64,000 bases of DNA from a virus. Made by a program: the position numbers and the translations under genes. The notes under the pieces are model-generated. The model searched no databases. It was given only the letters and a program-made list of their open reading frames with translations, and was not told where the DNA came from. The stretch is taken from IMG/VR virus record IMGVR_UViG_3300045976_000117, positions 10,299-74,298 of that record; one strand, written 5' to 3'. This document shows positions 33,903-41,112 of the stretch, piece after piece; the first letter of the stretch is position 1, and each line of letters opens with the position of its first letter.

Positions 33903-34772
33903 GTGATCGATCTTGCCGCGGTTCGGAAGACCCAGAGCCAGATTAATGCGGCTATCTGGGGCTGTGCCGGTATCGCCATGTCTGCTTCAGCTATCGCAGG
34001 AATTACCGGATTTTGGAACCTGCAACACGATGGCTGGGGTCTTGCCTCAGGTCTCACTACTTCGGTAGCCGTGGACACGGCTCTTTGGGTAGCTCTGACC
34101 TCTGATCAACTCATGGAGCGCGCGGGCCTGGCCGCAGACGGGCCTTGGGCTCGCGCCGTACGCTGGGGCACCGCGGTGATGTCGATCTTCCTCAACGTGC
34201 TGGCTGCGGTGCTATCTCCTATCGAAGCCGGTTTCAAATTTCTTCTGATCGTGATTCATGCCTTTGCGCCATTGATCATGGTTGGTTTGGCAGAGCTCCG
34301 AACGGAGAACGGTCGCAAGCTGGCTGCCAGGGAGCGCGAGGCTCTCGAGCAAGAAGAGGCCCGACGTAGGGCCCTTGATACTCCGATCGTTGCTCCATCC
34401 GAGCGAATCTCACCCCCGGTGCCGATCGTCTCTGTTCCGGACCCCCGGCTGGCCAGTGAGGTTGCCGAACTTCGCGCGGAGCTTGCTCGAGTCAAGACGT
34501 TGACCCCGGCTCCTCCCACGCCCAAGCCTCCGCAGACGGTAGTGACTCCCTTGCGGCCTGCAACTGAATCCTCAAAAAATCACCGTGGGGCCTCAGTAAC
34601 CGATCGGATCGTTACTTATCTCAACACTCATCACTGTGGGGACCCTTATGGAATCACCGCGGAGATTTTAGCGTCTAAAACTAAACAAAATGTACACACC
34701 TGTAAAAAAGTTCTCACCGATTGGCGTCGGGGGCAAACTGACAAATCACAACGTAGGACGGCGACACCATGA
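33903..34772 (+). CDS. DUF2637/Spd-like membrane protein with coiled coil and C-terminal HTH
   Basis: Four TM helices with the AVD and HAFAP motifs; Pro-rich linker; HTH-like C-terminus; ATGA-coupled to the translocase gene. Confidence 0.7.
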   Translation: MIDLAAVRKTQSQINAAIWGCAGIAMSASAIAGITGFWNLQHDGWGLASGLTTSVAVDTALWVALTSDQLMERAGLAADGPWARAVRWGTAVMSIFLNVLAAVLSPIEAGFKFLLIVIHAFAPLIMVGLAELRTENGRKLAAREREALEQEEARRRALDTPIVAPSERISPPVPIVSVPDPRLASEVAELRAELARVKTLTPAPPTPKPPQTVVTPLRPATESSKNHRGASVTDRIVTYLNTHHCGDPYGITAEILASKTKQNVHTCKKVLTDWRRGQTDKSQRRTATP

Positions 34773-36922
34773 CTATCACTGATATTTCTCAGCCACCGGA
34801 GCCTGAGAACGAGGAACAACGGCAAAGTGCCATGCGACGGGCCCTCAATCGATGGTTCCGAAGGCCAGAGCCTGAAGACTATGAAGAGGTGACCGGCACT
34901 GAACTGTCACCATACGTGCCAACACCGCGAGAGCCCGAGCTCGAGCCACTGGCTTGGCTGGAAAAGCACAAGCTCACATTGCCTGACCGGCGACGGGTCA
35001 AGGCTCGAAGCAAGGAAGTAGCCAGGCACCTGCCCGGTATGGCCGTCAAGTTTGCTTTTACCACCCTCCCACGGAGAGCTTGGGACGAAGGCGTAACTCC
35101 CGTCTGGCGTGGTTGCGGCAAATGTGCAATGGCTTACTACAACTGGTTGACCTCCGCCTATCTCGCGGAGGCTCACAAAGACGCCGAAGGCACCCGTAAA
35201 TCAGCGATTAACCAGAATAGGCACAAGAGTCATGGCTACAAGCTCTGGGCTTCGGTCTTCGGCGCTTGTACTGCTGCCGGAGGCATGGCCTACCTGTACT
35301 TCTATCATTTTATTCCGTTTCTGGTCGTACTGGGTGTAGTGCTATTTCTTCTCGATGTGCTTGGCCGTGTGGGAGAAGAGAAGAAACAAGAGATTGCTCC
35401 GGTTCACACTCAGCCACTTAGTGAAGGTATGGAGTACGGACAGCTCACCGCGACGATTCAAGCTGGCCTCAATGAGACTATTGGACTGGACAGCGAGGGT
35501 AAGCCACTTGCGCGTGTTTCAGGTCTTGTTACTTATGATTTTGAGCGTGGAGAGTTCCGACAGCCGATCACTACATATCACGACTTCGAAGAAAAACACA
35601 TTCGCTATCTAGAACGTCGGGTGGCGGCACGACCCGGCAGCATATTCGTCTTGCAGGAACCGAAAATCTCTACTCAGCGAACCATGGTCATCAAATATCG
35701 TGACCCGTTCCGAGATGTGCCGTCTGCTCCGTTTATCAAGCCTGGTACGAAATCTATTACCGAGGGTTGTGTTATCGGAGTATCGCAGACTGACCGACAG
35801 TTCCTTGTGCATGTAGCTGGTCTGCATGTTGGCGTGGTGGCCCAGTCGGCAGGTGGCAAGTCCGAAGGGATCATTGCCTCTTTGATCGAGGCTATCCTTG
35901 CGACACACAATGCTGTGCCGGTTGGCATTGACCTTACCGAAGGACCACTATTTCCAATTTATGAAGGTCTTGTTCAAAAAGTTGCATACACTCCCAAAGA
36001 TGCGGAGGAACTTCTCGGTTGGCTGATAGATGAAAAAAGTCGTAGAGCTAAAATTTTGCAGAATATTGCTCGCAGTGATGATCCGAACGTCAAGGGCCGT
36101 GAGTGGAACGCAGATCTCGCGGCGCTGTATAACGCTCCGAGCATCCATGTCATTATCGATGAATTAGCAATGACAACAAAATTCGATGGTAAGGGCGGCA
36201 GTATTAATCTGCGGGCACCGATCGAAGAGCTCGCCCGTACCGGGTCCAAGCACTGGATCACTCTTATCACTGGCCAGCAGAAGACCGGTAACAATGACGC
36301 AGGTTCTACTGGTATCACCGACAACATGCACGTCTGGCTAGTAGGTCCTTGCTCCCCAGATGACGCTAATGCAATCTTCACCGCGGAGGGGCGTAAGCAG
36401 GGATATGCACCTAACTTGCTGAAGTCGGCAGAACGGGGCAAGTCTCCTAATGATGCTGGTCGATGCTATGTCAAGGCTCCCGGCTATGGCCCGGACGTGT
36501 ATTGCTCCTATCGGCCGATGCCGGAAGACGAACTCAAGCGTCGCCGCAAGATGCGCCTTGAAATCGGAATACCGATGTTAAAACACTGTGGTGAAGATGA
36601 TAATGATGAAATTATGGAGGCTGAGGTGGTTCCAAGCAGGCCAGTGCTCGAGGCTCTCGCGGCAGCCTTCGAAGATATTAATCCGCCGGACGGCAGATTG
36701 CCGAGTGCTTTGGCTGCTCAATGGATCAGTGAAAGGACCGATATGGAATTTACTCAAGAATCTCTGGCCGCTGCTCTAAAGAAGGAGCTCGGTGATGACC
36801 GGGCACCGCGGACGTACAGCAACCGGTGCAAGATCGTGAAGATCCTTAATCCGGAGGCTGAGAACACCAACCGCAAGTACTACGCACATGCGGACATTTC
36901 GAGCCTCATGGCGGGGGTGTGA
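34769..36922 (+). CDS. traB: FtsK/SpoIIIE-family DNA translocase, TraB-like
   Basis: Two TM helices; Walker A AQSAGGKS; GIDL; Walker B VIIDE; LARTG...GQQ; C-terminal winged-helix-like domain. Confidence 0.8.
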   Translation: MTITDISQPPEPENEEQRQSAMRRALNRWFRRPEPEDYEEVTGTELSPYVPTPREPELEPLAWLEKHKLTLPDRRRVKARSKEVARHLPGMAVKFAFTTLPRRAWDEGVTPVWRGCGKCAMAYYNWLTSAYLAEAHKDAEGTRKSAINQNRHKSHGYKLWASVFGACTAAGGMAYLYFYHFIPFLVVLGVVLFLLDVLGRVGEEKKQEIAPVHTQPLSEGMEYGQLTATIQAGLNETIGLDSEGKPLARVSGLVTYDFERGEFRQPITTYHDFEEKHIRYLERRVAARPGSIFVLQEPKISTQRTMVIKYRDPFRDVPSAPFIKPGTKSITEGCVIGVSQTDRQFLVHVAGLHVGVVAQSAGGKSEGIIASLIEAILATHNAVPVGIDLTEGPLFPIYEGLVQKVAYTPKDAEELLGWLIDEKSRRAKILQNIARSDDPNVKGREWNADLAALYNAPSIHVIIDELAMTTKFDGKGGSINLRAPIEELARTGSKHWITLITGQQKTGNNDAGSTGITDNMHVWLVGPCSPDDANAIFTAEGRKQGYAPNLLKSAERGKSPNDAGRCYVKAPGYGPDVYCSYRPMPEDELKRRRKMRLEIGIPMLKHCGEDDNDEIMEAEVVPSRPVLEALAAAFEDINPPDGRLPSALAAQWISERTDMEFTQESLAAALKKELGDDRAPRTYSNRCKIVKILNPEAENTNRKYYAHADISSLMAGV

Positions 36923-37112
36923 GGGGGCTACGAGGGGGTCAACTGTTGCGGGTCTGTTGCGCAACATCAGGTGCCCTGTTGACCCTCTCTGTCAACCCCC
37001 TGGCTACATGGTCATACCTCCCGATTGTCCGGGTATCCGAGCGCGTACTCCAGTGCGCATCCGCAGGTACTGACCGGGTACTCACGCGAGTACTCAGGGG
37101 AGGTGAGTACCC

Positions 37113-37322
37113 GTGGGCATTGCACTTCTGATACTCGTGGGAGTACTCGCGGTTTGGGCGCGTCATTGCTGGCGTTGGCCCTATGTGACCTGCAAACATT
37201 GCGAGGGCAAGAAGCGTGAGTACTCGTCGGACGGCGCGTACTTCCGAGACTCTGAGTGCGCGTTCTGCCTCACCAACGGGTATCGGTACCGGTGGGAGCT
37301 TCGATGGCTGACCCTGCTGTGA
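37113..37322 (+). CDS. Small TM plus Zn-finger protein of the type found after traB
   Basis: GGAGG RBS; WPY..CxxCxG.K.......FR...CxxC...G pattern. Confidence 0.7.
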   Translation: MGIALLILVGVLAVWARHCWRWPYVTCKHCEGKKREYSSDGAYFRDSECAFCLTNGYRYRWELRWLTLL

Positions 37323-40201: not shown

Positions 40202-40647
40202 CTCAAGCTGTTCAGCCTTACCAGGAGCCTCCTCGAGAGCTCCCGCATCCTCCTACGGAATTTAATCTAGGAGGGCATCGTTACGTACTCATTCCTACGG
40301 AGCAATCACCTCTTCCTGTCCCTCAGCATCAGGGTCCAGTCATTAATGGGATTCCTCATGTGCCAGGACCTCATGGCTACCAGCCGTATCGAGCTCCTTA
40401 CCATGCCCACCCGGCCAATCCTCCCTGGTTGCGAAACCACTATACCCGCGGGACGGGGATTTTGATCGGAGCAGCCTGCATCGGAGTTGTTCTTTTCATC
40501 GTAACGGCTGCACTCTTTACTTTGGTGACATGGGCCCTGGCCAACCTCATGGCCATTGCAGTGACGGTAGTGATCGTCTTTTTCGGCGGCTTAATCCTTT
40601 TAGGCAAGCTCGCATCCGTGCGGCACGGACACCCGATAAGGAGGTGA
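40198..40647 (+). CDS. SpdD-like membrane protein
   Basis: Pro/Gln/His-rich N-terminus followed by two TM helices, the architecture of plasmid spread proteins. Confidence 0.5.
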   Translation: MTQAVQPYQEPPRELPHPPTEFNLGGHRYVLIPTEQSPLPVPQHQGPVINGIPHVPGPHGYQPYRAPYHAHPANPPWLRNHYTRGTGILIGAACIGVVLFIVTAALFTLVTWALANLMAIAVTVVIVFFGGLILLGKLASVRHGHPIRR

Positions 40648-40653
40648 TAATTA

Positions 40654-41112
40654 ATGGGATGGCTATGGCCCACAGCTACTGAAGAGGAAGAAGACGAAGA
40701 GCTCACCTATACCCGCGGATTGGTCGCTGTTCATGAGTCGGGACACGCAGTGGCGTGCGACGCCTACGGCATTCCTTATTCAGAGATCCACGTCTCCGTG
40801 AGTCGTACCTACTGGACTGGCCAGCTTGAGTACACGGGTTACGTTCACACAGCAGACAACTATCATGGTCAGGAAATGCAGTACGCGGCCATGTGTTTGG
40901 CAGGTAGAGAGGCCGAAGCTCTATGGCTGATGGATAAATACGGCTGGCGCAAGGGAAAAGCCCGTTCTTTTGCAGAGGACCACGCGGGTACTGATATGCG
41001 TAATGCTCAGTTCCTTGTGGGTCGAGGTGGAATGTATCAGGCTGAAAAACAAGCTCGACGTTTAGTCGAGTCTCATTGGTCAAGAATTACCCGGTTAGCG
41101 GGACAACTCTAA
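40654..41112 (+). CDS. Zinc metallopeptidase (stand-alone M41/FtsH-like domain)
   Basis: AVHESGHAV (HExxH), LAGREAE, G.D. Confidence 0.8.
   Translation: MGWLWPTATEEEEDEELTYTRGLVAVHESGHAVACDAYGIPYSEIHVSVSRTYWTGQLEYTGYVHTADNYHGQEMQYAAMCLAGREAEALWLMDKYGWRKGKARSFAEDHAGTDMRNAQFLVGRGGMYQAEKQARRLVESHWSRITRLAGQL

Follow-up and report, generated by a model that had tools for sequence, protein, structure and literature searches.

Among the known systems closest to the locus analyzed here are the TraB/TraA-clt systems of the Streptomyces plasmids pSVH1, pJV1, pWTY27, and pIJ101. They rely on one FtsK-fold ATPase that is anchored in the membrane and recognizes DNA through a C-terminal domain, on a cluster of 7-9-bp repeats (clt) at or just past the 3' end of its gene, which the Tra protein binds, and on adjoining small membrane-protein genes that are translationally coupled and can be placed before or after it (PMC4447253, PMC3583192). 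Phages have already been connected with this kind of DNA movement. The element pZL12/phage ZL12 encodes virions and also carries a conjugal transfer locus that was defined by experiment (Zhong et al., 2010, J Bacteriol 192:3747; cited in PMC3583192), and SpdB2-like phage proteins, such as that of phiC31, have been proposed possibly to spread phage DNA (Thoma et al., 2015; PMC4447253). Moreover, an "FtsK-like DNA translocase" with no assigned function is annotated in many actinophages (bioRxiv 10.1101/2024.02.16.580700; PMC11536984).

The 64,000-nucleotide stretch analyzed here (the window) belongs to a viral contig of 74 kb that carries genes matching PHROGs for a head protease, the major head protein, an adaptor, the major tail protein, the tape measure, Dit, minor tail proteins, and an endolysin. 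The first-pass annotation had described an apparently intact set of head, tail, and lysis genes; these genes are present, but on a genome fragment whose completeness CheckV puts at about 78%. The phage encodes its own polymerase and primase/helicase, and no origin of replication was recognized. In agreement with the earlier remark that no AICE integrase or RepSA is visible, no integrase, resolvase, rep, Par, or GntR repressor genes were found in this phage, whose lineage includes DTR genomes without par or int. The host is a soil actinobacterium, whose hyphal growth is itself an assumption. The three described traits have counterparts in the phage, a putative one in the case of the DNA-recognition domain, and the locus contains the following features:

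33903..34772 (+): membrane protein of 289 aa from a GTG at 33903 (frame open from 33696), with about four N-terminal TM helices, a linker that is charged and Pro-rich, and an HTH-like C-terminal tail that is conserved
34769..36922 (+): FtsK/TraB-superfamily ATPase of 717 aa (family profiles, structure comparison, hydropathy), with a cytoplasmic N-terminal part, a two-helix TM hairpin at about aa 160-199 predicted from hydropathy, and one P-loop motor domain at about aa 290-610
36620..36919: C-terminal winged-helix-like domain of the ATPase (aa 618-717)
36930..37430: clt-like repeat array, with GTTGAC/GTCAAC inverted boxes at 36932-36989, exact GAGTACYC sites at 37076 (-), 37088, 37105, 37141, 37218, 37321, and 37418, and looser GTAC-core sites at 37045, 37067, 37238, and 37374
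37113..37322 (+): small 69-aa protein, its TM helix near the N-terminus and followed by a zinc-ribbon-like CxxC...CxxC motif
37349..37377 (+): conserved promoter-like block, with AGCTTGACAGG as its -35 context and a TGTCCGGGTAC box after it
37713..37931 (+): small single-TM protein, 72 aa, with a homologue in the related phage L001
38350..38679 (+): candidate two-TM protein of 109 aa from a TTG, start uncertain
38817..39827 (+): polytopic membrane protein of the YdjM family, 336 aa (PF04307; PHROG 20744 "hydrolase")
39824..40201 (+): soluble protein of 125 aa, its ATG start preceded by the ribosome-binding site GAGGAGG
40198..40647 (+): 149-aa protein, rich in Pro in its N-terminal half and anchored by a TM helix at the C-terminus
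40654..41112 (+): 152-aa protein containing the motif HESGH (HExxH)

The coupled gene pair recognized in the first-pass annotation was borne out: the start of the ATPase gene overlaps the stop of the upstream gene by ATGA, and the upstream protein has three strong hydrophobic segments and a weaker fourth one. The fold of the ATPase is of the FtsK type (Foldseek: FtsK motor, 2e-15; TcpA, 3e-14), and its best sequence match among solved structures is TcpA (E 2e-9, versus 1e-3 for FtsK). Its catalytic motifs are intact, with Walker A G363 and K364 and Walker B D464 and E465 invariant across 14 homologues. The winged-helix domain attributed to this protein is more delicate. The top structural matches of the last 100 aa are almost all winged-helix domains, but their Z scores are only 5-6.6, within the range of common arrangements, and Foldseek gave nothing significant for this domain; we refer to it as winged-helix-like.

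The kinship of the ATPase departs from what had been anticipated. The family profile scores 93-122 bits for the ATPases of pFP1-type Streptomyces plasmids and for "FtsK-like" genes of lytic Streptomyces phages, 19 bits for E. coli FtsK, and 6 bits for the experimentally studied pIJ101 Tra; all 17 plasmid records matching the ATPase come from Streptomyces. The ATPase is a distant relative of those of Streptomyces plasmids and is neither a chromosomal FtsK nor an EccC, but its membership in the canonical TraB family is unsupported by these scores. Nor was any Spd, DUF2637, or GntR/TraR homology demonstrable within the module, so that the label "TraB/Spd module" does not hold as a statement of family membership. 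In particular, the "DUF2637-like" upstream protein has no Pfam match, and hhalign gives only a weak one to DUF2637 (probability 35%, E 4e-4). Its 48 homologues are all metagenomic, none with a Pfam domain, and its family profile finds gp45 of the phiC31-like phage TG1 (E 1.8e-14), a protein without similarity to pIJ101 SpdB or to the DUF2637 proteins with which it was compared.

The downstream genes fared unevenly. The small TM-zinc-finger gene is real, and its conserved position downstream of the ATPase gene is shared by three independent relatives (L001-L003) and by two distant phages, L034 and L036. The YdjM assignment stands as well (32.1 bits, cut-off 29); this gene is kept in L001-L003, and in L004, its homologue lies directly 3' of the ATPase gene. 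The gene at 40198..40647, also kept in L001-L003, had been called SpdD-like, a name that we drop: it matched no known family and showed no similarity to the ORFs of pIJ101, pFP1, the NBC_00144 plasmid, or the first 50 kb of pZL12. No family match was found for 39824..40201, and no homologue of 38350..38679 in the related loci. The HExxH protein has weak, sub-threshold matches to metalloproteases M41 and M50; it might be located outside the module, since no homologue of it was found in the related loci.

The repeat cluster noticed after the ATPase gene is a genuine local accumulation. Seven of the nine exact GAGTACYC sites of the window fall within 350 bp (37076-37425) and two in the other 63.6 kb; the 14 strand matches that these nine sites yield, against 2.95 expected, were reached in none of 100 shuffles. 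Unlike in the TraB/TraA-clt plasmids, the main word is palindromic, and its sites occur in both orientations. Five of six relatives likewise have an array at this place, and the word differs from lineage to lineage (GAGTACYC, GGGGTCAT, GGGGTAYT, AGGAGACC, and CACTCCGG); the p-values of the arrays refer to words picked after the data had been inspected. The top locally clustered 7- or 8-mer starts 18-170 bp past the ATPase stop in the 24-kb neighborhood of the window, L001, L002, and L034; in L004, the same is true of 8-mers only, L003 has a weaker array, and L036 has none. Since the words are not dispersed over the genome, they are not KOPS-like. Judged by analogy, the arrangement of array and ATPase resembles the TraB-clt pair of Streptomyces plasmids.

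Some of the array sites could be regulatory, because the array overlaps a conserved promoter/operator region and part of it falls within the coding sequence 37113..37322. The core of both promoter boxes is invariant in four aligned phages. This promoter had been said to carry the same two operators as promoters elsewhere in the phage, which is correct for AGCTTGACAGG to the extent of one exact second copy at 32502 (-); otherwise, there are near matches at 37342 (-) and 41877 (+).

With a membrane-anchored ATPase of the DNA-pumping kind and an array on its genome, the phage may be able to move its DNA from cell to cell, or from one hyphal compartment to another, independently of virions. We tentatively favor the proposal that the motor docks on its own array, most likely for a virion-independent spread of phage DNA. 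The core of the module would be a membrane-anchored, presumably hexameric, double-stranded DNA translocase of the FtsK/TraB superfamily, whose winged-helix-like domain, we infer, docks on the 8-bp words that start about 150 bp past its own stop, marking the phage genome as substrate. The motor would then pump phage DNA through the membrane or septum, its direction and site being part of the same inference, and the co-transcribed 4-TM/HTH, zinc-ribbon TM, YdjM-like, and Pro-rich TM proteins might make up or open the passage. Such a transfer would most likely serve to bring replicating phage DNA into neighboring hyphal compartments or adjoining cells, as an analogue of the plasmid transfer and intramycelial spreading driven by TraB and Spd proteins. 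If this proposal is true, phage DNA passes between cells or hyphal compartments without the need for virions.

It is somewhat unlikely, though worth serious consideration, that the pump acts within one cell, in replication or segregation, in handling of the host chromosome, or in takeover, the array being an origin or a group of transcription-factor operators. The conserved promoter with TGTCCGG boxes in the array region, the cumulative GC-skew minimum at about 34-36 kb, and the presence of replication genes with no recognized origin would agree with this role. However, the skew minimum falls on the switch of transcription direction, and words that vary by lineage but keep a fixed place past the stop of the ATPase gene, some of them within a coding gene, are more in line with a cognate docking site than with an origin. 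In addition, the membrane hairpin and the five co-oriented membrane-protein genes point to a process in the envelope.

Streptomyces SmeA-SffA consists of a small membrane protein and a septal FtsK-family translocase. This general architecture is similar to that of the phage pair, and WhiB- and Lsr2-like developmental regulators are encoded near the module, so that pumping of the phage genome into prespores or daughter compartments, to be carried in spores, has to be contemplated. We consider it improbable: the ATPase does not significantly resemble chromosomal FtsK/SffA-type proteins, its match to Pfam FtsK_SpoIIIE stays below the cut-off, and no more than 798 among 1.84 billion library proteins score at all. 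Furthermore, the nearest complete relative has neither integrase nor Par genes, leaving stable carriage without obvious means.

The anchoring of the ATPase in the membrane, within an early-region block rich in membrane proteins, would also suit an exclusion or defense system that expels or blocks incoming DNA, but an array in cis on the genome of the phage itself, with conserved position and lineage-specific words, would be unexpected there and renders this function quite improbable. There is only a very small chance that the protein is a secretion ATPase of the EccC/EssC (type VII) kind: Foldseek does match these ATPase domains (2e-9), but FtsK and TcpA score far better, there is one P-loop domain instead of three, and the winged-helix-like tail and the neighboring DNA array do not fit. 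An inserted AICE or plasmid fragment or a chimeric assembly, for which the metagenomic origin of the contig was all that could be adduced, has a negligible probability and is ruled out by the identical flanking genes in three independent contigs, to which can be added the absence of a composition break and of any integrase or resolvase gene, the phage-type promoter box inside the block, the lack of any relative found in 185,579 species genomes, and contigs of other sequencing runs that span both the membrane-gene/ATPase and the ATPase gene-array junctions. Since gene order and both flanks match in L001-L003, comparison of the loci indicates that a lineage of soil actinobacteriophages has the block 33903-40647 as a conserved module of its own, as the first-pass annotation had proposed in calling it domesticated rather than a passing element.

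When the preferred reading, spread of phage DNA by a motor docked on its array, is set against the known systems, several differences appear. Apart from the P-loop, no sequence relationship of the phage ATPase to pIJ101 Tra could be detected, no GntR repressor or recognizable Spd protein was found with it, and its carrier is a tailed phage in which no rep, int, or par genes were found. The nearest cellular relatives are the pFP1-type ATPases (pFP1, NC_006912; NBC_00144 plasmid, CP108176), with 93-120 bits and a sister position in the tree; no second FtsK-like gene was found on either plasmid. In pFP1, this gene is located downstream of genes for a GntR regulator and a DUF2637 protein; unlike the phage ATPase, the pFP1 subtype has an N-terminal FtsK_gamma domain, and no repeat array was seen directly after these plasmid genes. 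The translocases of lytic Streptomyces BE-cluster phages, such as Tomas gp114 (122 bits), belong to the same superfamily and appear by sequence to be as close as the plasmid relatives. Nevertheless, gp114 falls inside the plasmid-type clade and not in that of the window, and its gene lies among tRNA genes, lacks the 4-TM partner upstream, and showed no detectable array downstream. TcpA of Clostridium perfringens pCW3 is an FtsK-like coupling protein and conjugative DNA translocase with only about 18% identity to the phage ATPase, and it acts together with a relaxosome and a Tcp apparatus of several proteins. With respect to the SpdB2-like proteins of phiC31/VWB-type phages, the upstream protein is homologous to TG1 gp45, which may or may not be the gene meant by Thoma et al. 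The record of pZL12 (GQ919031) gave no match to the ATPase family profile or to PF01580, and this element, unlike the present lineage, has plasmid replication with ParAB and an integrase; it is a conceptual precedent for an element that is both phage and transfer system. The concept of two transmission routes, which for this phage is a proposal, already has precedents in pZL12 and in the proposal of Thoma et al. (2015).

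The window runs from base 10299 to base 74298 of one record of 74,298 bp, which is classed in IMG/VR as a linear viral contig and estimated to be ~78% complete (CheckV). Its G+C content is 49-57%, with no composition break at the module. PHROG searches confirmed a set of virion and lysis genes that encode a head maturation protease, a major head protein, a head-tail adaptor, a major tail protein, a 1474-aa tape measure protein, a Dit protein, minor tail proteins, and an endolysin, as well as a replication set that encodes a DNA polymerase, a primase/helicase, an exonuclease, and a dCTP deaminase. 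The major head protein is ~50% identical to its counterparts in Rhodococcus and Mycobacterium phages, the WhiB homologues are syntenic in the relatives, and the source metagenomes containing the phage DNA come from soil and rhizosphere, with no RNA run listed among the sources. Together with the Lsr2-like gene listed below, these features indicate that the host, as judged from sequence, is a soil actinobacterium. In L034 and L036, two distantly related phages, Lsr2 and WhiB homologues occupy the corresponding site. The genes and sites in and next to the module with which we deal here are:

32594-32986, minus strand, Lsr2-like gene directly upstream of the module and divergent from it (dimerisation domain, 1.7e-18, and a weak DNA-binding domain)
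33903..34772, plus strand, upstream membrane protein (frame open from 33696)
34769..36922, plus strand, 717-aa ATPase, overlapping the preceding gene via ATGA
36930-37430, clt-like repeat array

Other features were observed elsewhere in the window:

5208-5299, 'tRNA-Asp' called by ARAGORN, anticodon atc, unusually long (92 nt) and placed within the head-tail operon
42838-42912, normal tRNA-Met (ARAGORN)
7616-12040, tape measure gene, also matching an endolysin PHROG (phrog_971, E 2e-38), and thus probably carrying a peptidoglycan-hydrolase domain
53404-54690, minus strand, 428-aa ORF without PHROG match, with a dense GCTGGTA, GGCTGGT, TGAGGCT repeat from ~54400 that probably encodes a tandem peptide repeat

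The ATPase contains an FtsK/HerA-type motor. Its AlphaFold model matched the FtsK motor domain in Foldseek (2e-15), followed by TcpA of pCW3 (3e-14) and, more weakly, EccC/EssC (2e-9), and a profile of 14 homologues gave TcpA as the best solved relative (2e-9), with FtsK in second place (1e-3). The Walker A (G363 K364) and Walker B (D464 E465) motifs are intact, and they are invariant in the same profile. Both the model and the alignment display one P-loop domain, and neither contains the tandem FtsK-like ATPase domains of type VII EccC/EssC. A TM hairpin is predicted at about aa 160-199, in which aa 181-199 is a strong segment by hydropathy scan and the second, weaker hydrophobic stretch (~aa 160-178) was read by eye. 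Residues 618-717 (pLDDT 73 in the AF2 model) follow the order helix-strand-helix-helix-strand-helix-strand-helix, and their top matches in VIA-align were nearly all winged-helix domains, including Cdt1, STIV F93, histone H1/H5, MarR, PadR, and Rex. Since the Z scores are just 5-6.6 and a Foldseek search with this domain gave no significant match, we describe the last 100 residues of the model as winged-helix-like, an assignment that is not proven.

Known families describe this protein poorly. It scored 17.4 bits with Pfam FtsK_SpoIIIE (PF01580), under the cut-off of 24, and 4e-11 with PHROG 12531 ('FtsK/SpoIIIE-like'); Pfam gave no match to FtsK_gamma (PF09397), and NCBIfam returned nothing for any module protein except a meaningless FtsH hint. 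A profile search that exhaustively covered 1.84 billion representative proteins yielded just 798 matches, which implies that ordinary FtsK proteins do not score. A tblastn search with the ATPase matched no bacterial FtsK, whereas one with pIJ101 Tra did. Among plasmids, 17 records were matched by tblastn, all of them from Streptomyces, and among phages the matches fell solely in Streptomyces BE-cluster phages, in a gene annotated as an FtsK-like DNA translocase.

Scores of selected proteins against the ATPase family profile
Tomas gp114 (lytic Streptomyces phage): 122 bits
NBC_00144 plasmid protein: 120 bits
pFP1 protein: 93 bits
E. coli FtsK: 19 bits
pIJ101 Tra: 6 bits

A FastTree phylogeny of 156 motor domains, whose representatives were taken from a library clustered at 50% identity, places the window ATPase in a phage clade of 51 representatives (support 96). 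This clade includes the ATPase of L004, a contig that also carries an endolysin homologue. In the adjoining clade, of 63 representatives, Tomas groups with pFP1, the NBC_00144 plasmid protein, and proteins from Kitasatospora and Streptomyces. FtsK and pIJ101 Tra sit close to the root at the ends of long branches, well away from the phage clade. The first-pass annotation had taken the ATPase for a TraB. Its separation from chromosomal FtsK and EccC holds, but neither the profile scores nor the tree group it with the experimentally verified Tra in the comparison, which was that of pIJ101 (the TraBs of pSVH1, pSG5, and pJV1 were left out). In our reading, the ATPase is one of a group of divergent FtsK-like ATPases that radiated among the mobile elements of actinomycetes, and would work like TraB, as judged from its anatomy, with membership of the verified TraB family not shown.

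The upstream membrane protein begins with a hydrophobic domain that comprises about four TM helices; a charged, Pro-rich linker follows, and the C-terminus is a conserved HTH-like tail. It belongs to no Pfam, NCBIfam, or named PHROG family, and its 48 homologues are all metagenomic. Its profile matches gp45 of the phiC31-like phage TG1, with which it has the 4-TM/linker/HTH build in common, and this match agrees with Thoma et al. (PMC4447253), who remarked on SpdB2-like genes in actinophages. The gene had been called DUF2637-like. In the searches, Pfam gave no match to PF10935, hhalign against pFP1 alone gave an E of 0.35, a deeper profile against two DUF2637 domains aligned weakly over 84 columns (probability 35%, E 4e-4), and a protein search for DUF2637 relatives found nothing. 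The ESM atlas provided leads only (DUF2637 0.85, SpdB_N 0.83), and thus kinship with DUF2637 is only hinted at. A complex prediction of this protein with the N-terminal part of the ATPase scored 0.00 and counts neither way.

Downstream of the ATPase gene there are genes that encode a 69-aa TM/Zn-ribbon protein, small TM proteins, a YdjM-family membrane protein, a Pro-rich TM protein, and an HExxH protein. The YdjM assignment was right (PF04307, 32.1 bits with a gathering cut-off of 29; PHROG 20744, E 8e-11). No counterpart was found for the protein called SpdD-like: in a comparison with the ORFs of pIJ101, pFP1, the NBC_00144 plasmid, and the first 50 kb of pZL12, none of the module proteins showed a resemblance, so at the level of sequence the 'Spd' label is an analogy and not a homology. 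No adjacent gene for a GntR-type TraR/Kor repressor was found, and the upstream divergent genes are the Lsr2-like one and another without family. The Zn-ribbon gene also follows the ATPase gene in the distant L034 and L036, and a YdjM-like gene does so in L004; this adjacency supports the idea of a functional unit.

The word GAGTACYC has 14 strand matches in the window, where 2.95 are expected; across 100 shuffles the count never rose to 14. The matches correspond to 9 sites, 7 of which lie within 37076-37425, just after the ATPase gene, and the local count rises to about a dozen when looser GTAC-core sites are included. A KOPS-like role for GAGTACYC was ruled out, because its sites are not scattered genome-wide. 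Of the six related loci, five have a clt-like array, as does the window, each with a word specific to its lineage.

Repeat arrays in the related loci (distances are from the ATPase stop codon; rank 'first' means that no other 7- or 8-mer in the entire locus is more strongly clustered locally)
L001, close relative: GGGGTCAT, 10 GGGTCA cores in 650 bp; starts ~60 bp after the stop; rank first
L002, close relative: GGGGTCA; starts ~120-140 bp after the stop; rank first
L003, close relative: GGGGTAYT; starts ~140 bp after the stop; rank fourth, weaker
L004: AGGAGACC; starts ~190 bp after the stop; rank first for 8-mers only
L034, ATPase just 27% identical: CACTCCGG; starts ~30 bp after the stop; rank first

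No array was detected after the ATPase gene of L036, and none was seen after those of Tomas, pFP1, and the NBC_00144 plasmid. The binomial enrichments range from 2e-5 to 3e-15, and the words behind them were picked once the data had been seen. Covariation of the winged-helix helices with the array word would be confounded with phylogeny at this small number of loci, and is therefore given no weight here. The arrays partly overlap the small Zn-ribbon gene, which is homologous among the loci. Published clt loci consist of 7-9-bp repeats to which Tra binds and which lie in the end of tra or adjacent to it (PMC3583192; PMC4447253). A fixed position, a word specific to the lineage, and a place beside the 3' end of a translocase gene are features that the array shares with them. 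The conjugation module that had been proposed is recognizable in its motor, predicted TM segments, and clt-like array, but not in a GntR repressor or in homology to Spd proteins. A promoter context, AGCTTGACAGG, is identical at 32502-32512 (minus strand) and 37349-37359 (plus strand), ~4.8 kb apart and flanking the module start, with near matches at 37342 (minus strand) and 41877 (plus strand).

The explanation that we consider the most likely, although we hold it tentatively, is that of a membrane translocase: the ATPase would dock on the array in the phage genome and pump the phage dsDNA over the septum or envelope, and the phage would thereby spread independently of virions. A more far-reaching proposal, possible but doubtful, is that in a lineage of DTR-packaging actinophages, some of them apparently virulent, replicating phage DNA would be driven across hyphal cross-walls or into neighbouring cells by a TraB-like pump of the phage, with the help of a cognate array for docking and of membrane proteins dedicated to this task. 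Such virion-free spread would evade receptor and adsorption defences, and the DNA-reading domain and the word would co-evolve, so that each phage would move only its own genome. The main rival, rather unlikely in our estimation but to be taken seriously, is an intracellular role in which the array would be an origin or a set of operators. Blocks conserved in all four close phages, i.e., GTTGA/TCAAC boxes, TGTCCGG boxes, and a TTGACA promoter, interleave with the arrays, and this conserved promoter and boxes, as well as a GC-skew minimum, speak in favor of it. The loading of spores or compartments appears improbable, and a function in exclusion slightly more so. Protein secretion in the manner of EccC/EssC is very unlikely, given the single P-loop domain of the ATPase, and the probability of an inserted element or a chimera is negligible, in view of the flanking gene order in the close relatives.

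On both flanks of the block (~25.7-33.7 kb and 41.4-48.8 kb) the gene order of the window is kept in L001, L002, and L003; the latter are the related phages with the same synteny that the first-pass annotation wished to see, and they bear out its view of a domesticated rather than a passing module. The source of L002 is a genome of 95.8 kb that is complete and carries direct terminal repeats. A scan of contigs of 185,579 species genomes revealed no relatives. There was no match to Phage_integrase, Recombinase, Resolvase, ParB_N, or AAA_31 in the parent record (78% complete) or in the complete relative G001, in agreement with the previous remark that no AICE integrase is visible. The distant relative G002 (88 kb, DTR), whose ATPase falls in the same clade, encodes a tyrosine integrase (L037, G002 84019-84546), indicating that the wider clade mixes an integrase-bearing phage with phages where none was found. 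As for the promoter said to be shared with other parts of the phage, the -35 context of the module-internal promoter recurs exactly at 32502, but the sites at 37342 and 41877 are near matches only. Read-level mapping provided short, low-depth Logan contigs, whose uncovered parts carry no meaning; some of them bridge gene junctions, but none spans the whole stretch. On the basis of the synteny with L001-L003, the lack of detected tyrosine or serine recombinase, ParA, and ParB genes, and the recurrence at 32502, insertion of an AICE or plasmid and assembly chimerism were rejected. In runs X3 and X4, contigs join 31852 to 32023, skipping 170 bp, which points to a natural variant without this stretch. 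A T5-like first-step-transfer pump was also rejected, because in the complete DTR relative the module occupies the middle of the genome, with L002 at 35.7-57.7 kb of a 95.8-kb record.

This analysis ties an 'FtsK-like' actinophage gene to a cis-acting array and conserved membrane proteins, and these offer a concrete mechanism, i.e., the sequence-directed pumping of the phage genome. If DNA is truly pumped between compartments or cells, viral spread in multicellular actinomycetes could not be stopped by receptors, adsorption blocks, or neutralising conditions, and the boundary between phages and conjugative elements would blur beyond the single known plasmid-phage pZL12. If the role is instead in segregation or replication, a function would still be assigned to a widespread orphan family.

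The plasmid ATPases of the pFP1 type from Streptomyces have their own FtsK_gamma winged helix at the N-terminus (~aa 16-74; L006 4702-7314, P0125, P0147), whereas FtsK has it at the C-terminus. On pFP1 and the NBC_00144 plasmid the ATPase homologue is the only FtsK-like gene found, and on pFP1 the genes for a GntR regulator and a DUF2637 protein lie upstream of it. TraB-clt conjugation is already known, and so are the FtsK-like genes of many actinophages, with no role assigned (bioRxiv 10.1101/2024.02.16.580700; PMC11536984), the proposed role of SpdB2-like phage genes in spreading phage DNA (PMC4447253), and the plasmid-phage pZL12, which has a defined transfer locus according to a paper that cites it (PMC3583192). 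What is new is that, in DTR genomes without a detected integrase or Par gene, a phage-specific ATPase clade goes together with arrays whose words differ by lineage and with a conserved complement of membrane genes.
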